The translations under genes and the position numbers were made by a program. A stretch of DNA of 32,000 nucleotides, from contig JAJRVL010000009.1 of the NCBI GenBank assembly GCA_024277355.1, positions 1 to 32,000 of the forward strand, given 5' to 3'. A model generated the notes under the pieces. That model worked only from the letters and a program-made list of their open reading frames with translations. It searched no databases and was not told the origin of the DNA. How positions within the stretch are numbered: position 1 is the first letter of the stretch; each line of letters starts with the position of its first letter. Below are positions 12,152 to 31,441 of this stretch, one piece after another. The stretch comes from an archaeon (GTDB lineage Archaea > Iainarchaeota > Iainarchaeia > Iainarchaeales > 1-14-0-10-31-34).

Positions 12152-12339
12152 GGGCCTGTAGCCTAGTGGATAAGGCATCAGCCTTCTAAACTTTTTTCGC
12201 AAAAAAGTTTAATCAAAAAAACCTTTTTCAAAAAAAGGTTTATCAAAAACGTTTTTGCTTTGCAAAAACTATTGATTTTTTTTGGTTTGGAAATAGTTAA
12301 GATAGCTGAGGATCGTGGGTTCGAATCCTCCCAGGCCCG
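12152..12339 (+). tRNA. tRNA-Arg(UCU) interrupted by a 115-nt intron at the canonical 37/38 position
   Basis: Exon 1 is gggcctg-ta-gcct-agtggata-aggc-a-tcagc-cttcta. Exon 2 is a-gctga-ggatc-gtggg-ttcgaat-cctcc-caggccc-g. Acceptor and anticodon stems are perfect; there is one T-stem mismatch (U50/C64). Confidence 0.85.
12189..12303 (+). other. BHB intron of tRNA-Arg, built almost entirely from three palindromic repeat units
   Basis: BHB: the central helix joins nt 33-35 (ttc) to intron aag (12299-12301). The 3-nt bulges are t-a-a (12187-12189) and a-t-a (12302-12304). The outer helix pairs acttttttc (12190-12198) with ggaaatagt (12289-12297). The body reads aaacttttttcgcaaaaaagttt|aatcaaaaa|aacctttttcaaaaaaaggttt|atcaaaaac|gtttttgctttgcaaaaac. 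Confidence 0.75.
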
Positions 12340-15359: not shown

Positions 15360-16964
15360 ATGAATTCAAAAAAAATTCTTTCAAATGAATTAACTAAAAT
15401 AATTAATTCTCCTGAAATAACACTAAAAAAATTACAGGAATTAATTGAAATTCCTCCTGCAAAAGAATTAGGGGATTATTCTTTACCTTGCTTTAAGTTA
15501 ACTAAAGCATTAAAAAAAAATCCCCAAGAAATTGCATTATTTTTAAAAGAAAAATTAATTAAAATTCCTTTAATTGATTCAATTGAAACAAAAGGCCCTT
15601 ACCTTAATTTTTTCTTAAATCATTCTTTTATTGCAAACAAATTAATTCCAGAAATATTAAAGAAAAAAGATTTATTTGGAAAACAAAAAAATTTAAATAA
15701 AAAAGTAATGATTGAATATTCTTCTCCTAACACAAACAAGCCTTTGCATATAGGTCATTTAAGAAATGATTCAATTGGAATGAGTTTAAATAATTTATTT
15801 GAATTTAATGGATTTAAATGCATTAAATCAATTTTAATTAATGACCGAGGAGTGCATATTTCAAAATCAATGTTAGCTTACCAAAAATTTGGTAAAGGAA
15901 AAAAACCACAAAAAAAATCAGATCATTTTGTTGGAGATTATTATGTTTTATTTAATCAAAAAGCAAAAGATAATCCTGAATTAGAAAAACAAGCTTTAGA
16001 GTTGCTTGCAAAATGGGAAAAAAAAGACAAAGACACTTTAAGTTTATGGAAAAAAATGAATGACTGGAGTATTAAAGGATTATTCCAGACATACAAAAAA
16101 TTTGGTTCTGAATTTAATGTAATATACAAAGAATCAGATTATTTTAATAAAGGAAAAAAAATAATTGAATCAGGACTCCAAAAAAAAGTTTTTGAAAAAG
16201 ATAAAGAACAAAACATTATTGTTGACTTAGAAAAATTTAATTTAGGAAAAAAAGTTGTTTTAAGAGCAGATGGAACTTCAATTTATTTCACTAATGACTT
16301 AATTTTGTCAGTAGAAAAATTTAAACATAAATTAGAAAAAAATTTATGGGTTGTTGGTTCAGAACGAAACTTTTATTTTAAACAATTATTTAAAACTTTA
16401 GAATTACTTGGATTTGAATGGATAAATAAATGCAAACATTACAGTTATGGAATGGTTTATTTGCCTGAAGGGAAAATGAAGTCAAGAGAAGGAAAAGTAG
16501 TTGATGCAGACAATTTAATTGAAGAATTAACTGAAATGGCTAAAAAAGAATTAAAGAAAAGAAATTCTTCTTTATCAGAAAAAGAATTAAATAAGAGAGC
16601 TGAAGTAATCGGCATTGGAGCAATAAAATTCTTTTTATTAAAAGTTGATGCAGTAAAAGATATTCATTTTAATCCTGAAGAAAGCATTTCTTTTGAAGGA
16701 GAAACTTCTGCTTTTATTCAGTATTCTTATGCAAGATGCAAAAGTATTTTAAAAAAATCAAAAAAATCAGGAAACCCTGTTTTTAGTAATTTAACTGAAG
16801 AAGAAAAAAACTTAATTTCAAAACTTTCTTTGTTTGAAGAAAAAGTTATTCTTGCATTTAATCTGTTGTCCCCTCATATCTTGTGTCATTATTTACTTGA
16901 TTTAACCAGTTCATTTAATTCTTTTTATCAGAACTGCAAAGTATTAAATGAAGAAAAAAATTAA
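15360..16964 (+). CDS. argS: Arginyl-tRNA synthetase, main body (stops 30 codons before the conserved C-terminus)
   Basis: Class I HIGH motif SSPNTNKPLHIGHLRN, an MSK-like GKMKSREGK, and a DALR-type anticodon-binding region. It stops at the TAA (16962-16964) right after an A7 tract. Confidence 0.9.
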   Translation: MNSKKILSNELTKIINSPEITLKKLQELIEIPPAKELGDYSLPCFKLTKALKKNPQEIALFLKEKLIKIPLIDSIETKGPYLNFFLNHSFIANKLIPEILKKKDLFGKQKNLNKKVMIEYSSPNTNKPLHIGHLRNDSIGMSLNNLFEFNGFKCIKSILINDRGVHISKSMLAYQKFGKGKKPQKKSDHFVGDYYVLFNQKAKDNPELEKQALELLAKWEKKDKDTLSLWKKMNDWSIKGLFQTYKKFGSEFNVIYKESDYFNKGKKIIESGLQKKVFEKDKEQNIIVDLEKFNLGKKVVLRADGTSIYFTNDLILSVEKFKHKLEKNLWVVGSERNFYFKQLFKTLELLGFEWINKCKHYSYGMVYLPEGKMKSREGKVVDADNLIEELTEMAKKELKKRNSSLSEKELNKRAEVIGIGAIKFFLLKVDAVKDIHFNPEESISFEGETSAFIQYSYARCKSILKKSKKSGNPVFSNLTEEEKNLISKLSLFEEKVILAFNLLSPHILCHYLLDLTSSFNSFYQNCKVLNEEKN

Positions 16965-17056
16965 TGAATTCAAGATTAGCTTTAGTTGAAAGCACTTCAG
17001 TTATTTTAAATAATGGATTAAATTTACTTGGAATTAAAACTTTAAATGAAATGTGA
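16964..17056 (+). CDS. argS: Detached ArgRS C-terminal segment (30 aa) in a different reading frame
   Basis: MNSRLALVESTSVILNNGLNLLGIKTLNEM* matches the ArgRS C-terminal helix pattern (RLAL...L..GL.LLGI....M-stop). Its ATG overlaps the TAA of the main ORF (TAATG). Confidence 0.8.
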   Translation: MNSRLALVESTSVILNNGLNLLGIKTLNEM

Positions 17057-17061
17057 TTGTT

Positions 17062-18867
17062 ATGGCTAAAAAATTAAATTACAATGAAATGCTTGAAAAA
17101 TTACTTAAAAATTATTATTCTTATAACAGACAGGAATTAGGTTTATTTGAAAGAGCATTTAAAGTATCAAAAAAAAGAAAAATTTTTGAAAATGCATTAA
17201 AATTACTTAAAAAAGTTCCAATAGAAGATGAATTTGGTTCAGCTTTAATTACCAAAGCTTTTTGGTATTCAAAAGAAAAACACGCAAAACAAAAAAGGTT
17301 TTCAGGAGAACCTTTTTTTATTCATCCATATAAAACAGCTTTATATTTAACTGAACTTGAAATGGATGCTGCTTCAATTACAGCAGGTTTTTTGCATGAC
17401 GTAGTTGAAGACACTGATACTCCTTTAAGTGAAATAAGAAAAGAATTTGGAGGCGAAGTTGCTTCTCTTGTAAAAAGTTTAACTAAATTAAGACATTTTG
17501 TTGCAATAAGCAAAAGAAAAGAACATAATGTTGCATTACAAAAAATTTTGTTTGCAACAACAAAAGATTTAAGAGTAATAATAATTAAGTTAGCAGACAA
17601 ATACCATAATCTGCAAACTTTAAATCATCTTCCTCAGGAAAAACAAATTAGAATTGCAACTAATGCACTTGAATTTTATGTTCCTGTAGCAAAAAAACTT
17701 GGATTACATGAATTAGAAGATCTTTTTGAAAAAATTTGTTTTAAAACAATTAAACCAAAAATTCATTCAAAAATAAGAAAGAAAAAAAATGAAAGCATTA
17801 AAGCAAAAGAACCTGAAATTGATTTAATAATAAAAAAACTTGAACCAGAACTAAAAAAAGCAGAACTTAATGTTTCTTTCAGAAAATACAAAAGAACTGC
17901 TTACACTGTATTCAAAAAAATGACTCAAAATTTAAAGTCTTTTAATGAAATTCAGGACTGCATTGTATTAATTGCTTTAACTGAAACAAGAGAACAATGT
18001 TATGAATTACTTGGATTACTGCATAACATGTTTTCTCCTATTCCCTTAAAATTCAGAGATCATATTGCTATTTCTCAGTTTCCTTTATATCAGTCAATTC
18101 ACACTACAGTAATTGGCCCAAAACACACTCCAGTTAAAATTTATATTAGAACAAAAAAAATGGATGCTTTAGTTAAACACGGAGTAACAGAACTGCTTAG
18201 AAGAACTAAAACAGAAAATGATGTTTTCACAGAAAACATTTCTTTTTTAAATAAATTAATGTCAATTAAACTTGATGACCTTGAATCAGAACATTTTATT
18301 GATTTGCTTAAATCTGATTACCTTCAGGACAGAATTATTGTTTTTACGCCTAATGGAAATTTAATTGATTTGCCTAAAGGAGCTTCAGTAATTGATTTTG
18401 CTTATGCAGTTAATGAAAAAAAAGCAGCTAAAGCAAGAAAAGCAAGAGTTAATGGAAAATTAGTTCCTTTATGGCATAAATTAAGCAATGGAAATTTAGT
18501 TGAAGTTGTTGCAGGAAAAAAAATTCAGGTTTCAAAAGTATGGCAAAATTTTGCTATTTCAGTTAAAGCAAGAGAAGAAATAGAAAAATATTTAAAGAAA
18601 AAAAGAATAGTAAAAGAAAAAATGCCTTTTGTTAATTTAGAATTCAAGGCAATAGACAGAATTGGCTTATTAAATGATTTCACTGAAGCTTTTGTTTCAG
18701 TTCAGGCAAATATTTTTTCTGCTGAATTAAGAACAAATGATAAAAGCGGGTTAGGAATAAACTTTTTTACTTTAGAATTATCTGATCCAAAAAAACTTAA
18801 TGTTTTATTAAAAAAACTAAAAAAAATTAAAGGAGTAATAGAAATAAAATCAAATTTTATAGAATGA
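17062..18867 (+). CDS. Long RelA/SpoT homolog (HD hydrolase - synthetase-like - TGS - ACT)
   Basis: HD domain GEPFFIHPYKTALYLTELEMDAASITAGFLHDVVEDT...RVIIIKLADKYHNLQTL. Synthetase-like YQSIHTTVIGPKHTPVKIYIRTKKM. TGS IIVFTPNGNLIDLPKGASVIDFAYAV. C-terminal ACT-like FKAIDRIGLLNDFTEAF. The alternative GTG start at 17053 overlaps the argS tail. Confidence 0.85.
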   Translation: MAKKLNYNEMLEKLLKNYYSYNRQELGLFERAFKVSKKRKIFENALKLLKKVPIEDEFGSALITKAFWYSKEKHAKQKRFSGEPFFIHPYKTALYLTELEMDAASITAGFLHDVVEDTDTPLSEIRKEFGGEVASLVKSLTKLRHFVAISKRKEHNVALQKILFATTKDLRVIIIKLADKYHNLQTLNHLPQEKQIRIATNALEFYVPVAKKLGLHELEDLFEKICFKTIKPKIHSKIRKKKNESIKAKEPEIDLIIKKLEPELKKAELNVSFRKYKRTAYTVFKKMTQNLKSFNEIQDCIVLIALTETREQCYELLGLLHNMFSPIPLKFRDHIAISQFPLYQSIHTTVIGPKHTPVKIYIRTKKMDALVKHGVTELLRRTKTENDVFTENISFLNKLMSIKLDDLESEHFIDLLKSDYLQDRIIVFTPNGNLIDLPKGASVIDFAYAVNEKKAAKARKARVNGKLVPLWHKLSNGNLVEVVAGKKIQVSKVWQNFAISVKAREEIEKYLKKKRIVKEKMPFVNLEFKAIDRIGLLNDFTEAFVSVQANIFSAELRTNDKSGLGINFFTLELSDPKKLNVLLKKLKKIKGVIEIKSNFIE

Positions 18868-18871
18868 CTAA

Positions 18872-18928
18872 TTAGCTGTTAATCATTTTTTTTAAGGCTT
18901 CTATATCTTCTATTTTTCCTCTCGCCAT
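18872..18928 (-). pseudogene. Displaced relic of the alaS 3' end
   Basis: The minus strand reads atg gcg aga gga aaa ata gaa gat ata gaa gcc tta aaa aaa atg att aac agc taa = MARGKIEDIEALKKMINS*. The functional alaS C-terminus is IARGKIENKDALKEIIKN*. About 45 of 54 nt are identical to 18995-19046. Confidence 0.75.
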
Positions 18929-18988
18929 CAAACTTTTTCAGAAAAAGTTTGAACAAAAACGGTTTTCGCTATGCGAAAACTATTGAAA
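18929..18988. repeat. Composite palindromic element (A + B hairpins) between the relic and the functional alaS 3' end
   Basis: caaactttttcagaaaaagtttg, then aacaaaaac, then ggttttcgctatgcgaaaact, then attgaaa. Confidence 0.7.
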
Positions 18989-21649
18989 TTAATTTTTAAT
19001 TATTTCTTTTAAGGCGTCTTTATTTTCTATTTTTCCTCTTGCAATTTTGTCGTTTCCGCCGCCTTTTCCTTTTGTTTTAACAAAAATTTCTTTTAAAGTA
19101 TTTTTAGCTTTTAGTTTTGATTTGCTTCCTTCAATAACTAAAATTTCATTTCCATTAACTAAAACAAATTCTGCTTTAGGGTTTTCTTTTGCTAATTTGT
19201 TTCCTAAAGAAATAACTGTTTTTACAGGCATATCATCAGCTAAAATAAAATTTCTTCCAGAATTATTTTTTATTTTGAATTCTTTTTCTGTAAAATTTCC
19301 TTTATTTATTTGTTTTCTTAATTTTTTCCATTCTTCAATTATTCTTTTATTTGATTCAAGTATTTTTGTTTCAGGGCTTCCAAGTAATTCAGCTGTTTCT
19401 CTAATTATTTTTTCTTTTTCCTGAATTAATTTAATTGCACTTAATCCAACAGTATAATTAATTCTTTCAATTCCATCTTTTATTCCGTCTCTTTTAATTA
19501 TTTTAAATAAACCAATTTCACCGGTGTTTTTTATATGGGTTCCTCCGCATGCTTCAACATCATAACCTTTAATATTTAAAATTCTTAATTCTTTTCCAGG
19601 AACAGCCCCGCCTTGATATAACCTAAAACCATATTTTTGTTCAGCTAAATTTCTATCTAAAACAAAATTCTCAACTTCAACGTTTTCCTGAATGATTTTA
19701 TTTGCAGTAAATTCAATTTTTCTTAATTCTTCTGATGAAATTTTCTTAAAGTGAGTTAAATCTAAATGTGCTTTATGTTCATCTTTTTTACTTCCGCCCT
19801 GCCAGATATGATTTCCTAATACTTCTCTTGCAGCAGCATTTAATACATGAGCTGCAGTATGATGCTTCATTATGCTGTGGCGTTTTTTCCAGTTAATTTT
19901 TCCTATTACAGTCATTCCTTTTTTAAATGAATTAGCTTTCTCCATTTCATGTAATATTACTCCCTGCTGCTGTTGTGTATCTAAAACTTTTACTCCGTTT
20001 ATTTCTCCTGTGTCTCCAATTTGTCCTCCGCCTTCAGGATAAAAAATAGTTTTATCTAATACTAAATAATTTTCTATTGTACCTAAAACTTTTCCCTGAA
20101 ATTCCTGCATATACCTGTCGTCATAATACAAAGGAAAAGTTTTGTCAAATTTAACTGTAAATTCTCTTTCTTTTTCTTTTTCAATTTCATCATCTTTTGC
20201 TATCATTTGATAAAAATTCTGCGGAATTTCAACTTTAATTCCTTTTTTTTCTGCAATTTCTTTTATTGTTTCAGGTGCAATTCCATCTGATTCATATAAA
20301 GTAAGTAATTCAGATGAAGTAATTCCTTTTGTTTTACTTGTTTTTTCTATAACTGAATTTAATTTTTTTTCTGCATTTAATTTGCTTGCATTATATTTTT
20401 TTTCTTCTTCATGAATAATGTCAATTGCTGTATTTACTCCTTCTTTTATTTCTTCATCTAATTCTTTTAAATGCAAAGCATGGTTTTCAAGTATTTTTCC
20501 AAAATCTAAATTAAAATTAAATTCTTTATTAAAAGCAAAAACTCTTCTTAACAGCATTCTTAAATTATATCCTCCGCCTGAATTAGACGGAAGCATACCG
20601 TCATTAGTTGTATAAAGAATATTCTTCAAGTGATCAGCAATCCCATATAATGCCTGTAATTTTTCTAAATCAGAAAAAAATTCTTTTCCTGCACCAATTT
20701 TTTTGCCAATTAATCCCTTTTGTTTTTCATAATCAGTTAAATCACTTTCAAGTTTTCCTGATAATTTAGCGTATTCAGTAAAAAGTTTTTCGTTTACTTT
20801 AATTCCAGTTTGTTTTTTCATATCATAAATTGCTTTTCCAAAAGCAATTTCATAACTTGTAGCTGAACCATTAGTAAACCAGGCTAATCTTTCTAATCCT
20901 GCTCCCATGTCAATTACTTTTGTATCTAATTCCCTGTATTTTCCGTTTCCCATATCCTTGTATTGCATAAAAACAATATTTCCTAATTCAACTCCATTAG
21001 CACAATATTCAATGCAAGGCCCAAATGAACCTCCTCCCATCCAGACGTCTTCCTGAAAAACTAAATCTTTTTCTTTTACTCCTAAAACTTTCATTACATA
21101 TTCATAATCATATTTTATTGCTTCTTCTTTCCAGTAAAATTCTCCGGTTTTTTTTGTATTAAATGCATGCTGTCCAAACATTACAAAACAAGTATAATGT
21201 CTTCCAGTTACTCCAACATTATTTACGTCTCCAAACCTAATGCTTGTCTGAGGTACAATTAAAGGGTTAGCTGGAGGATCAAATTCTCCGTTAACAACAT
21301 AAGGCTGAAAATCAATTATTGAAGCATTAGTAAAATATAAGTCATCTCTCCATCTGCTTACAGTTGGATAACGTTTAATTGAAGTATGCTTGTTTTTTTC
21401 AAAAAACTTTTCTATTTCTTTCCATGTTTCAATATAACTTAATTTTTTTGTTGATTTTCCAATAAAGTCATATCCAACACAGCTTGCATCAGCACAAGTT
21501 TTTCTGCTTGAATCAACTGACCAAAAATTTACTCCGCAAGAACTACATTTTTTTCTTTGAAATCCTTTATCTTTAAAGAATTTTAAGTTATAATGTTTTT
21601 TCCAGTCTTTAGCAAACTTTTCTTTTAATTCTTTTTTTGAAACACTCAT
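18989..21649 (-). CDS. alaS: Alanyl-tRNA synthetase, archaeal type
   Basis: 886 aa. The N-terminus (FFKDKGFQRKKCSSCGVNFWS) is archaeal-type. Editing-domain HxxxH (HTAAHVLNAA) and CGGTH are present, as is the C-terminal DHHA1-like GKGGGNDKIARG. Confidence 0.95.
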   Translation of the reverse strand: MSVSKKELKEKFAKDWKKHYNLKFFKDKGFQRKKCSSCGVNFWSVDSSRKTCADASCVGYDFIGKSTKKLSYIETWKEIEKFFEKNKHTSIKRYPTVSRWRDDLYFTNASIIDFQPYVVNGEFDPPANPLIVPQTSIRFGDVNNVGVTGRHYTCFVMFGQHAFNTKKTGEFYWKEEAIKYDYEYVMKVLGVKEKDLVFQEDVWMGGGSFGPCIEYCANGVELGNIVFMQYKDMGNGKYRELDTKVIDMGAGLERLAWFTNGSATSYEIAFGKAIYDMKKQTGIKVNEKLFTEYAKLSGKLESDLTDYEKQKGLIGKKIGAGKEFFSDLEKLQALYGIADHLKNILYTTNDGMLPSNSGGGYNLRMLLRRVFAFNKEFNFNLDFGKILENHALHLKELDEEIKEGVNTAIDIIHEEEKKYNASKLNAEKKLNSVIEKTSKTKGITSSELLTLYESDGIAPETIKEIAEKKGIKVEIPQNFYQMIAKDDEIEKEKEREFTVKFDKTFPLYYDDRYMQEFQGKVLGTIENYLVLDKTIFYPEGGGQIGDTGEINGVKVLDTQQQQGVILHEMEKANSFKKGMTVIGKINWKKRHSIMKHHTAAHVLNAAAREVLGNHIWQGGSKKDEHKAHLDLTHFKKISSEELRKIEFTANKIIQENVEVENFVLDRNLAEQKYGFRLYQGGAVPGKELRILNIKGYDVEACGGTHIKNTGEIGLFKIIKRDGIKDGIERINYTVGLSAIKLIQEKEKIIRETAELLGSPETKILESNKRIIEEWKKLRKQINKGNFTEKEFKIKNNSGRNFILADDMPVKTVISLGNKLAKENPKAEFVLVNGNEILVIEGSKSKLKAKNTLKEIFVKTKGKGGGNDKIARGKIENKDALKEIIKN

Positions 21650-21766: not shown

Positions 21767-22062
21767 GGGTTGTGGAGAGTAAGCCGCTTTTTGTTTTACC
21801 AGCATTCACCTTTGCGTCTTAAAGACTTGCACTCCCAGAACATATTTCATTTCTGTTTAACCTAAAGCACGTTTCATCCTTTTTCCAGAAAACTCACTTA
21901 AAGGTCATCATAATTCTGGAATGGTTTCGTTTCTGCTCTTCAGGAAACCCTCTAAGGTTTGTTTTTGATGAAACTTTTTTTAAAAGTTTCTAGGAATGAG
22001 TGAGCGGACTTTCCTCAGCTCCATTTCGAAAAATGGTACCGTCAGCTGGTCTTCCACTACCC
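21767..22062 (-). ncRNA. rnpB: RNase P RNA
   Basis: The minus strand has CR-I GAGGAAAGTCCG (complement of 22005-22016) and a CR-V-like AAAAAGCGGCTTAC (complement of about 21779-21792). P1 pairs GGGTAGTGGAAG (22062-22051) with CTCTCCACAACCC (21779-21767). P3-like hairpin ccattt-ttcg-aaatgg; P5 CTCAC/GTGAG; internal ACAGAAA. A TTTAAAAA TATA-like box lies about 23-30 nt upstream. Confidence 0.75.
21956..21990. repeat. A-type palindromic unit embedded in the RNase P RNA specificity-domain region
   Basis: The plus strand reads ggtttgtttttgatgaaactttttttaaaagtttc. On the RNA strand it follows CR-I/P5 by about 12 nt. The near-repeat CATTCCTAG / CATTCCAG on the RNA strand brackets it plus 45 nt. Confidence 0.6.
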
Positions 22063-28429: not shown

Positions 28430-28450
28430 CATGAAACCCAAATTAAAGAG
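28426..28450 (-). promoter_or_regulatory. 3' strand of the 23S processing stem with BHB bulge
   Basis: Minus strand CTCTTTAATTTG-G-GTTT-[CAT]-GCCAA pairs with the leader strand at 31429-31453. Confidence 0.75.
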
Positions 28451-31441
28451 TTTGAACTCAAGTTTTTAGTAGCAGTCAACTTAATATGTCGCCGTAGCTT
28501 CATACTTACATTTCTGCCCTATCAATCCAGTGTTCTACTGGTACTCTTGTCCTTATTCCTTATATTCCGCAGAATACAAGTAGTCAGGAATGATTGACTC
28601 TTTTTAGGGACCGCTTCAAGCTTAGATGCTTTCAGCTTTTATCGGTTCCGGCGTGGCTACCCAGCAACTGCCTTGTCAGACAACTGGTACACTAGAGGCC
28701 AGGACTCCACGTTCCTCTCGTACTTATGGAATCTTCCCCTCAGTCAATCGACATGTCCGATAGATAGGATCCAAACTGGCTCGCACCGTTCTTAACCCAA
28801 CTAACGTAAGGCTTTAATGAGTTAACACCTCCACCCTTGGCAGCTTATGCACTGCCAGGATGCCTTGAGACGACGGCGAGGTCGCAAACCGCGGGGTCGA
28901 TATGAGCTCTTGCCCGCGACCACTCAATTACCCCCAAGATAAGTTCACTGTTAGACTAGGCCCCCATTAAAAGGGACACTAGCGTTCGCTAGACACATCT
29001 TTCGATTCGGCTTTACTTGCTGTGCGTAAAACCGTCAAGCATGCTTTTGGTCTTGTCCTCTAAGGAGAATTTCTGACTCTCCTGAGCATACCTTTGGACA
29101 CCCCTGATATCTTTTCAGGGGTGTACCGCCCCAGTCCAACTACCCGTCTAAAGCTGTCCTCTTTCGAGTGAGCAATATGCTTTTTTAAGGATGGTGTTCC
29201 ATTGTTGTCTCCACAATTCCTGACGAAACTGCTTCGAAGACTACCATCTACACTGGACGTAAAAAACCATATTACAACATCAGATTGTAGTAAACCTCTG
29301 TGGGGTCTTCTCTTCCCATCGGACATTCGAGGTATATTCACCTCGCAATGAGTTCATTGGGCCCAAATTAGGGACAGTGGGAATCTCGTTACTTCATTGG
29401 TGCAAGCCGGCATTAAACCGGCAAGGTATTACGCTACCGTGAGAGCCTCAGAGTTAGGCCCGCTCTTCACCAGAGCTTAGCTCCATTGAACTGAAGTTTA
29501 ACTTACTGGCAGTGAGCAGAAGTCAGCCTCTATACACACCATTGCTGGCTTGCAGAGACCTGTGTTTTTGTTAAACAGTCGGACTCCCTTTGTCATTGAA
29601 ACCTGCAATTTACTTAATCGCAGGCACCCCTTATACCGAAGATACAGGGCTATTTTGCCGAATTCCCTTAATTTGGTTTCCCCAAGACGCCTAGGCCTTT
29701 TCAGCCAGGGGCACTTTTCCTAGTTCTTGGTACGGTTACATAAAATCCATTCTGATTTCCTTTTTATGAAACCCAGGCCTCAATTGAAAATTGCTTCTAT
29801 TCCTGAATTTAATCTGCTTCTCATCATTACAATTCTCCACAGATTTATTTCAGTTAAATGCACAGACAAGTGCATTCAATCTAGCCCAAGCTGTTAGAAA
29901 TCAGACTATCGTTGCCGTGAGTATTTATGTAGTACAGGAATATGAACCTGTTTCCCTTTCGTCCACGTCGTGTTACGAGTGGCCTTAGGACCGACTAACC
30001 CTTAGCTAATGATTAGCGCTAAGGAACCCTTGCCCTTTCGGCGGAAAGAATTCTCATCTTTCTATTGTTATTACTAGCGCGAGGATCCATATTCGCGACA
30101 GATCCACAAGAAATTTCTCTCTTGCTTCTGCTCTATCGTGACACCTCCCTACTCCATTTGTTTTCTATTGAAAACAAGGCTATGGTATCGGCAGCTGGTT
30201 TTAGCCCAGTGAATTTTCAAGACCTTTATTCTAGGTAGGTGAGCTGTTACGCACTCTTTAAAGGATGGCTGCTTCTAAGCAAACCTCCCTACTGTATTAG
30301 AACAAAGATACTTTTCGTGTTTACACTTAACCAGCATTTTTGGGCCTTAACCACAGTTTAGGTTGTTCCCTTCTTGGAACAAGGGCTTACCCCTTGCCCC
30401 CTACTCTAACCTTCTACGACGATTATAGATTTGGAGTTTAACGAAAAAGCTGGAAGTTTCCGACCAGTACTTTCTAATTAGTATCTCGACACCATAATCT
30501 ATCTCCAGTTAGGCTAGCCTTAGGGCTAATTCGAGAGGAGCCCGCTATGGCCATGTTCGATTGGCATTTAACTCCTACTCCCAGGTCACCAAAGTAGATA
30601 GACTAACACTTGTTGCGGACCTCCACCATTTTGTAAAACGGCTTCATCCTGCCCAGGAGTAACTCACATGGCTTCGGGTCTTACCGTTGTGACTAAAGCA
30701 GTTTAATACTTTCAGCCTGATTCTAAAAGAACTGCGCTGACTCGCTTTCGCTGCGGTTTCAAAGTGAAAACTTCTTAACCTTGCCACAAAGGCAACCTCC
30801 CCCGCTCGTGATTCAAGACGAACGATATGACACTGATCAAATTCTTTCGTAATTATTTCTCAATAACTTCCTTCAAGAATTCTCTTTTCTTTAATGCCAT
30901 ATCTTGCTATAACCAGTTAGTTTCAAGCGCTTTTAACTCCCTGTTAAGGGTACTTTTCAACTTTCCCTCGCGGTACTAGTATGCTATCGGACTTGAGTAG
31001 TATTTAGTGTTAGGAGTTAATGTCTCCCGTATTCACGCGCAAAAACCAATGCACGCTACTCTTAACACGAAAAATTATCCTTTTGAATTTTTTGTTTACA
31101 AGGCTTTCACTCTCTTTGGCGCTGCTTTCCAGCAGACTTCAACTAAATTTAAAGGATATAAATCGCTCTACACCACATCTCCCTTAAATTACTTTAAGGG
31201 ATTCAGTTTGCTCTCTTCTGTCTTCGGTCGACCCTAATAACAGAATCATATTCATTTTCTTTTCCTTCAGGTACTAAGATGCTTCAATTCCCTGAGTTGC
31301 CCTTCCTTTCGGAATAATTCAGAAATCCCTGGCTCAAAGATTGCATTGCATCTCACCAAGGCTTATCGCAGCTTGCCACGTCCTTCATCAGCTCTCAAGC
31401 CTAGTTATCCACTAACTGGCGTAATGAACTCTTTAATTTGA
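28434..31441 (-). rRNA. rrl: 23S (LSU) rRNA, about 3.0 kb, no large intron evident
   Basis: On the minus strand: 5' region GATGAAGGACGTGGCAAGCTGCGATAAGCC (complement of 31361-31390), sarcin-ricin loop AGTACGAGAGGAAC (complement of 28711-28724), and 3' region GCTGAAAGCATCTAAGC (complement of 28620-28636). The ends are set by the BHB bulges. Confidence 0.9.

Follow-up and report, generated by a model that had tools for sequence, protein, structure and literature searches.

The 32,000-nucleotide (nt) stretch of archaeal DNA analysed here, which we refer to as the window, corresponds to contig C7 (JAJRVL010000009.1) of a 1.13-Mb, 11-contig genome of the Iainarchaeota that is 96% complete. Between argS and alaS the window carries a gene for a long RelA/SpoT homologue (RSH), P0001, which we predict to be a hydrolase that has lost its synthetase activity. 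An earlier reading, made from the sequence alone, had claimed that P0001 contains the four domains of a bacterial-type long RSH, and all four were found with Pfam. The features of the gene are as follows, with confidence in the AlphaFold model given as the predicted local distance difference test score (pLDDT).

17062–18867, + strand: gene for P0001, a hydrolase-type long RSH ('S-type', [Hs]) of 601 amino acids (open reading frame and Pfam)
17257–17706, + strand: HD (p)ppGpp hydrolase domain, residues 66–215 (HD_4, 120 bits, E 9e-35; model pLDDT >90)
17395–17415, + strand: H112-D-V-V-E-D-T118, with the metal-binding HD pair and the catalytic ED pair (alignments)
17896–18192, + strand: pseudo-synthetase domain, residues 279–377, fold kept and catalytic residues lost (RelA_SpoT, 67 bits, E 1.8e-18)
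17956–17973, + strand: D299-C-I-V-L-I304 of the D-x-x-x-x-R block, with the Asp kept and the Arg (RelSeq R269) replaced by Ile
18136–18153, + strand: K359-I-Y361-I-R-T364, replacing E-x-Q-I-R-T (RelSeq E323, Q325; alignment to 6yxa)
18334–18510, + strand: TGS domain, residues 425–483 (TGS, 61 bits, E 1.3e-16)
18412–18414, + strand: N451, at the position of the CCA-stacking TGS histidine (alignment)
18511–18630, + strand: short helical linker, residues 484–523, where bacterial and partner RSHs have helical and zinc-finger (RIS) domains
18631–18849, + strand: ACT/RRM regulatory domain, residues 524–596 (ACT_4, 46 bits, E 8e-12; pLDDT ~85–92)

Domains and catalytic residues of P0001

The gene starts at the ATG at 17062, which matches the M-x-KKLNYNE start of orthologues from the same genus and lies 5 nt past the stop codon of the argS tail (17054–17056). 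The overlap with that tail that had been proposed for the start therefore does not hold for the conserved ATG, and applies only to an alternative GTG at 17053. The HD domain, the synthetase fold, the TGS domain and the ACT/RRM domain follow one another in the order of long RSHs, each above its Pfam cut-off, and a structure model and a fold search agree with Pfam on this arrangement. The model, built with AlphaFold from a 47-row alignment, has a mean pLDDT of 83; the HD and synthetase-fold domains are mostly above 90, with the pseudo-synthetase domain at ~90–96. The best matches in sequence and fold are bifunctional Rel[HS] enzymes (B. subtilis 6YXA, RelSeq 1VJ7 and S. aureus 7OIW; 32–34% identity), the best solved relative being B. 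subtilis Rel (PDB 6yxa; E 2.6e-98 in the HMMER alignment). The N-terminal half of the model, which spans the HD domain and the synthetase fold, superimposes on catalytic fragments of Rel with template modelling (TM) scores of 0.85–0.90 and, for 1vj7_B, a root-mean-square deviation of 2.7 Å; P0001 and Rel[HS] both also have TGS and ACT domains. With 601 residues and four domains, P0001 is not a small alarmone hydrolase (SAH/Mesh1), which would comprise a single HD domain of ~180–200 residues. Against the NCBIfam model TIGR00691 (spoT_relA; cut-off 499.2 bits), P0001 scores 433.1 bits, P0002 (a second long RSH encoded in the same genome) 466.5 bits and an archaeal bifunctional relative 698.1 bits. 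The two scores below the cut-off fit with the generic names that homologues carry in the databases, namely 'HD domain-containing protein' for the P0001 type and 'TGS domain-containing protein' for the P0002 type.

Residue states were read from an HMMER alignment to 6yxa and from two MAFFT alignments. We number the catalytic positions as in RelSeq, following the structural work on that enzyme and the alignments. At the hydrolase site, which is identical to that of Rel[HS], all eight residues are intact: R44, H53, H77, D78, E81, D82, D144 and N148 correspond to R79, H88, H112, D113, E116, D117, D179 and N183 of P0001, which bears out the intact hydrolase motifs that had been noticed by eye. At the synthetase site, R241 is replaced by Y276, R269 by I304, E323 by K359, Q325 by Y361, K304 by Q339 and N306 by P341; K243 and K297 are changed to R278 and R332, and K251, D264, Y308, H312 and R327 are kept as K286, D299, Y343, H347 and R363. 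P0001 thus has none of the intact G-R-x-K, D-x-x-x-x-R and E-x-Q-I-R-T blocks of a bifunctional Rel[HS], the first of them reading K-Y276-K-R278. The sequence-only reading had pointed to K-I-Y-I-R-T and to the loss of the Arg from the second block, and both substitutions are confirmed against 6yxa, with the refinement that the replacement in QDCIVLIAL affects the Arg alone and leaves the Asp in place. The three alignments also rule out that the substitutions arose from a by-eye misalignment of the catalytic residues.

The same pattern recurs in orthologues of P0001, which we sampled as 30 P0001-type (S) rows from 11 families. In particular, all eight HD residues are present in 30/30 rows, and R269, E323 and Q325 are absent from every one of them; Arg occupies the R241 column in 3/30 rows and has been lost from the other 27. 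The Glu column (E323) holds Lys in 27 of the 30 rows and Glu in none, with a consensus of P-x-K-V/I-Y-I, and in the Gln column (Q325) we found Tyr, Arg, His or Ser, and Gln in 0/30.

The C-terminal half of P0001 lacks parts through which other long RSHs sense tRNA and the ribosome. A histidine of the TGS domain (H432 in E. coli RelA, H420 in B. subtilis Rel) stacks on the 3' CCA end of deacylated tRNA, and is required both for activation by deacylated tRNA and for the inhibition of hydrolysis by tRNA (PMC7797070). This column is His in 50/50 [hS] rows and in 36/36 [HS] rows, E. coli SpoT included, and in 1/32 S-type rows. The helical (AH/HEL) and zinc-finger (ZFD/RIS) domains of long RSHs are also missing from P0001: searches with PF19296 and PF28438 gave no match in P0001 or in its close homologues P0004–P0018, the CCxPxP motif occurs in 0/32 S-type rows as against 43/50 [hS] rows, and the gap between the TGS and ACT domains of P0001 is ~40 residues, with one helix at 501–513 in the model. 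Overall, Rel[HS] enzymes of ~730 residues differ from P0001 in having R241, R269, E323 and Q325, the helical/zinc-finger module and the CCA-reading histidine. P0001 has lost both the CCA-stacking histidine and the helical/zinc-finger ribosome module, which are kept in P0002, and is therefore itself unlikely to be a sensor of tRNA charging, as the sequence-only reading had suggested it might be.

The pseudo-synthetase domain, despite its lost catalytic residues, is conserved. Among the S rows the mean pairwise identity is 44% for this domain, 49–50% for HD, 43% for TGS and 24–25% for ACT; the corresponding values among P0002-type (R) rows are 32–33% for the dead HD domain, 52% for the synthetase domain and 61% for TGS. 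The conservation of the pseudo-synthetase among S rows therefore points to a retained non-catalytic role. Such a role has been shown for Acinetobacter SpoT[Hs], whose pseudo-synthetase domain contacts the core and the C-terminal domains and thereby modulates hydrolysis (PMC9974481).

The predicted partner synthetase and the distribution and origin of the two types

A check for other alarmone synthetases had been proposed together with the sequence-only reading. A whole-genome search with the RelA_SpoT and HD_4 profiles found P0002, a protein of 608 amino acids and of type [hS] on contig C11 (G000:C11:9840-11663). Its RelA_SpoT score is 124–130 bits, compared with 67 in P0001, and its synthetase motifs are intact (G-R-T-K, H-D-L-I-A-V-R and E-T-Q-I-R-T), with a RelA-like charge reversal, F-D-D-Y, aligned at RelSeq K297. 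The HD domain of P0002 is dead, the motif being replaced by F-L-C-E-T and the L-A-D-x-x-H-N block unrecognisable, and the protein retains the C-C-x-P-x-P zinc-finger segment and the CCA-reading histidine of the TGS domain. Among 29 usable R rows, all synthetase residues are present in 29/29 and a complete HD site in 0/29. The genome therefore encodes exactly one intact RSH hydrolase site, in P0001, and one intact synthetase site, in P0002. With its HD site intact, its synthetase residues lost and a separate synthetase in the genome, P0001 falls into the [Hs] class; the earlier prediction of a hydrolase without synthesis is strengthened both by the 30/30 orthologue pattern and by the complementary synthetase-only paralogue. 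Taken together, sequence, structure prediction, conservation and genome context give good support to the prediction of a hydrolase-only long RSH in an archaeon.

Two further observations concern the same genome. The P0002 gene is followed on the same strand (G000:C11, L001:1-603, minus strand) by a gene for a single-domain KaiC-family ATPase (PF06745, 218 bits). This arrangement recurs at 23/30 loci across the order, with KaiC-family proteins of 62–96% identity, so that the synthetase and KaiC genes form a second conserved pair, parallel to the pair of argS and the hydrolase gene. In addition, an open reading frame of 205 codons (P0003; G000:C2, L003:1276-1890, + strand), directly after a transaldolase-like gene, gives only an 18-bit match to RelA_SpoT. 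It has a G-R-x-K-like start, F-H-I-R-I-M-T at the position of E-x-Q-I-R-T and no catalytic Glu, and a Pfam search at E 0.01 found no domain in it; P0003 looks like a degenerate protein of the small-alarmone-synthetase kind.

To place the two types in the order, we surveyed 101 genomes of at least 80% completeness and counted co-occurrence from two tables. A long RSH is present in 78/101 of these genomes, and the P0002 type in 76; long RSHs, which had been called rare in archaea, are thus common in this lineage. Both types occur together in about 53/101 genomes, from 15 families, the P0002 type occurs alone in 24/101, from 9 families, and the P0001 type occurs alone in a single genome (1/101), which is 81% complete; neither type was found in 23/101. 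In the phylum as a whole, which is essentially this one order, 134/171 genomes have a RelA_SpoT domain. That the families with a single copy might carry one bifunctional RSH proved wrong, as their single copies are all [hS]. Five synthetase-only genomes (G023, G022, G044, G057 and G020; loci L088–L092), one of them a single contig of 99% completeness, were searched for HD_4, and the sole match was the dead HD domain inside the R protein.

Families f2 and f30 (G009, G111 and other genomes), which lack a long RSH, often have RelA_SpoT open reading frames of 358–470 residues with intact synthetase residues (for example at L080 and L081), and G032:C4 (L082) has an additional, 206-residue small-synthetase-like open reading frame with all synthetase residues present. 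These shorter proteins indicate that the lineage has more RSH architectures than the S and R types.

The origin of the two types was examined in a tree computed with IQ-TREE (LG+C20+F+G4, by the posterior mean site frequency (PMSF) method) from 83 rows and 649 columns. The rows comprised 30 bacterial, 15 S, 16 R and 22 archaeal bifunctional proteins, and the three longest S rows (S_L024, S_L026 and S_L029) were left out. The bacterial outgroup was drawn from the search with the S-type alignment, which returned mostly bacteria, and covers about a dozen phyla; the bacterial rows include RelA and SpoT of E. coli, taken from NC_000913. An earlier, over-clustered tree of 58 rows had left the S clade unresolved beside the bacteria, and was superseded by trees that include the 30 bacterial rows as well as bifunctional rows whose archaeal origin had been verified. 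In the tree, a branch with an ultrafast bootstrap (UFBoot) of 100 and a Shimodaira–Hasegawa-like approximate likelihood ratio (SH-aLRT) support of 99 separates the bacteria from all archaeal RSHs. The S clade (100/100) and the R clade (100/98) are both supported, and the archaeal bifunctional proteins fall into two clades. The record titles in this bifunctional group name Nanoarchaeia and Woesearchaeota, and both clades are archaeal by genes on their contigs, which encode eIF2-gamma, ribosomal protein S6e, an archaeal ThrRS editing domain and TFIIB, as well as family B polymerase, FEN1 and deoxyhypusine synthase.

When the tree is rooted on the bacteria, its order is (bifunctional A, (S, (bifunctional B, R))), with inner supports of 93/84–87 whose labels have perhaps shifted on re-rooting. 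A constraint that joins S and R into one clade was not rejected (log-likelihood 17.8 units better than that of the free quick tree; p-AU, from the approximately unbiased test, 0.825). Because the stem of the S clade is long (0.54), its exact placement is unsure, and this includes a direct sisterhood to R. The tree is otherwise read as unrooted, and hence without a direction for an old transfer between bacteria and archaea. The nearest evolutionary neighbours of P0001 are bifunctional RSHs of DPANN archaea, of ~630–645 residues (for example P0177, P0212, P0178, P0175 and L096), which together with the S and R clades make up the archaeal side of the split; unlike P0001, they retain the RIS domain and the histidine of the TGS domain, have two intact active sites and pass TIGR00691 (698 bits). 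Since both RelA and SpoT of E. coli group with the other bacteria (100/99), the archaeal split appears independent of theirs: in our reading, the hydrolase type would have arisen within the archaeal RSH radiation, and P0001 is not a SpoT orthologue in the sense of descent from the proteobacterial Rel duplication.

Neighbouring genes and archaeal context

The genes and features that flank P0001 are as follows.

15360–17056, + strand: argS, directly upstream of P0001 (Pfam tRNA-synt_1d and a truncated DALR domain)
18928–18952, no strand assigned: perfect 12-nt inverted repeat (TCAAACTTTTTC / GAAAAAGTTTGA) with a 1-nt loop (sequence)
18989–21649, − strand: alaS, the convergent neighbour (Pfam)

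The position of P0001 between two aminoacyl-tRNA synthetase genes had been taken as suggestive. Linkage to argS stood up to comparison, in that the gene immediately upstream, on the same strand, is argS at 24/30 S-type loci, in 10 of 11 families and with ArgRS identities down to 35%. Strong adjacency of alaS to the S-type gene was confined to the genus of P0001 and one further genome of its family (f1), and the argument from the neighbourhood therefore holds for argS alone. Because the stop codon of the argS tail lies 5 nt from the ATG of P0001, the two genes are likely to be co-transcribed and form a probable operon. Since P0001 has lost the parts that sense tRNA and the ribosome, the link to argS more likely concerns expression than the sensing of tRNA by P0001. 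Among public sequencing runs, a single one, available as contigs, contained 21% of the sequence words, and no RNA run contained the sequence.

The argS gene is itself split. Its body ends at a TAA at 16962–16964, just after an A-run (GAAGAAAAAAATTAATG), and the tail, at 16952–17056, lies in the −1 frame. This tail is the conserved ArgRS C terminus (…LMNSRLALV…LGIKTLNEM*), which a loss of 1 nt separates from the frame of the body, and argS is read through in one frame in all 11 relatives checked. Either the assembly contains a 1-nt homopolymer error here, or this essential gene has a genuine frameshift, at a slippery site that resembles A-AAA-AAU. The inverted repeat listed above sits in the 121-nt spacer between P0001 and alaS, and is possibly a terminator or an inserted hairpin element.

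The contig is archaeal. It carries an archaeal large-subunit (LSU) rRNA gene at 28443–31436 (2520 bits) and an archaeal RNase P RNA gene at 21768–22061, which agrees with the archaeal, non-chimeric context that had been claimed, and the window also carries tRNA genes, one of them with a long intron. At 12152–12339 there is a 188-nt Rfam tRNA match for which ARAGORN made no call, consistent with an intron-containing archaeal tRNA. The nearest homologues of P0001 are labelled 'Diapherotrites', 'Micrarchaeota' or plain 'archaeon' at NCBI. The closest bacterial proteins are 32–39% identical and come from many phyla, with no group prominent; the homologue searches returned no bacterial sequence more than 39% identical to P0001. 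Contamination or a chimera is ruled out by the two archaeal RNAs on the contig and by argS-syntenic orthologues in dozens of related archaeal genomes.

Predicted function and significance

We consider it probable that P0001 is a (p)ppGpp 3'-pyrophosphohydrolase of the [Hs] type, monofunctional and dependent on Mn2+, and that it provides the 'break' function in an alarmone circuit of two genes. The 'make' function would fall to P0002, a predicted synthetase [hS] with a TGS histidine, a zinc-finger ribosome module and a dead HD domain. The dead synthetase domain of P0001 may have been retained for a regulatory or scaffolding role without catalysis, as shown by experiment in Acinetobacter SpoT[Hs], and P0001 would probably be controlled through its TGS and ACT domains and through co-transcription with argS, rather than by the ribosome or tRNA.

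Several points weigh against this assignment. We infer the enzymatic activities of P0001 and P0002, as well as the substrate of P0001, from sequence comparison. The hydrolase-active state of Acinetobacter SpoT is stabilised in part by its helical and zinc-finger domains, which are absent from P0001. P0001 keeps the equivalents of D264, K251, Y308 and H312, and its pseudo-synthetase may therefore have some nucleotide binding or an unexpected activity. Finally, nine families have the synthetase type only and no RSH-type hydrolase, so that the hydrolase is either not strictly required or the alarmone is removed in another way.

The most serious alternative, though an unlikely one, is that the HD domain of P0001 is active on another substrate or in another role, such as on (p)ppApp, pGpp, NADPH (as for MESH1) or an alarmone imported from a host or from bacteria, and does not serve a dedicated partner. 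The HD domain does match the folds of MESH1 and of small alarmone hydrolases, DPANN archaea are mostly symbionts (PMC8407392) and many genomes of the order have the synthetase type without the P0001 type. However, the HD residues that contact guanine and phosphate are the same as those of bifunctional Rel, and the P0001 type co-occurs with the synthetase type, the sole exception being the 81%-complete genome.

We give still less credence to the idea that P0001 is bifunctional after all and synthesizes (p)ppGpp through non-canonical residues, for example with the conserved Lys359 in place of the Mg2+-binding Glu. Its metal-binding Glu, its catalytic Gln and R269 are lost in 30/30 orthologues, and R241, which with R269 makes up the pair of ATP-binding arginines, in 27/30. 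A single change in B. subtilis Rel, D264G, is enough to abolish synthesis (PMC7797070), and a SpoT of Moraxellaceae that has lost comparable residues shows no synthetase activity in vivo (PMC9974481). These observations, and the separate intact synthetase in the same genome, stand against the strong conservation of the pseudo-synthetase domain, the retention of D299, K286, Y343 and H347 and the conserved K-V/I-Y motif, on which the idea would have to build. Least credible of all is that the gene is a functionless, decaying relic of a transferred bacterial rel or a contaminant of the bin: despite the weak RelA_SpoT score (67 bits) and a TIGR00691 score (433) below the cut-off (499), more than 50 genomes, from 15 families, have an uninterrupted reading frame, argS synteny is conserved, the HD catalytic positions are invariant, the contig itself carries archaeal rRNA and RNase P RNA, and the nearest bacterial sequence is only 39% identical.

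A hydrolase with a regulatory pseudo-synthetase, as we propose for P0001, has an experimental precedent in SpoT[Hs] of A. baumannii (PMC9974481). Like P0001, SpoT[Hs] of the Moraxellaceae (PDB 7QPR; PMC9974481) combines an intact HD domain with a retained, catalytically dead pseudo-synthetase domain, is paired with a synthetase-only RelA[hS] paralogue and shares with P0001 an insensitivity to the ribosome and tRNA that is predicted or shown. The two proteins differ in what they have lost, in that the A. baumannii enzyme has its catalytic Asp and Gln replaced, whereas P0001 keeps D264 and has E323 changed to Lys. The A. baumannii enzyme also has the helical and zinc-finger domains, both of which P0001 lacks along with the TGS histidine. 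They are ~20% identical in a structural alignment and, by the tree, of independent origin; P0001 is thus a putative functional analogue of SpoT[Hs] with an origin of its own and a reduced architecture. In E. coli, as is predicted for P0001 and P0002, labour is divided between long RSH paralogues, RelA[hS] and SpoT[HS], and the synthetase-only member keeps the sensing of the ribosome and tRNA. Unlike P0001, E. coli SpoT keeps all synthetase residues and has weak synthetase activity (PMC9974481), and the duplication behind the E. coli pair occurred separately from that in archaea.

The standard survey of the RSH family (Atkinson et al. 2011; PMC3153485) lists archaea without long RSHs. According to Li et al. 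(2021; PMC8407392), RelA/SpoT is present in 69% of Diapherotrites and in 42% of Woesearchaeota, with lower proportions in other groups; these authors predict a transfer from bacteria and give the DPANN genes as annotation counts only. Our literature search found no paper on a reciprocal [hS]/[Hs] pair or on domain losses in archaea, which is not proof of absence. Relative to the published DPANN RelA/SpoT genes, what is new is a predicted make/break pair that is reciprocal and conserved across the order, with the sensing parts apparently kept by the synthetase only. Whether this extends to a circuit inherited vertically by the whole Iainarchaeota/Diapherotrites-type lineage, in which an archaeal Rel would have split into a sensing synthetase and a ribosome-independent, argS-co-transcribed hydrolase without helical and zinc-finger domains, convergently with Beta- and Gammaproteobacteria, is in our judgement evenly balanced.

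If this wider reading is correct, there would be a genuine (p)ppGpp stringent response in archaea, acting on archaeal ribosomes, and the question of an archaeal stringent response would become directly testable with two small, expressible genes. The pair would also offer a second, independent natural experiment in the division of a bifunctional Rel into two specialised enzymes, and in the purpose for which a pseudo-synthetase domain is retained.

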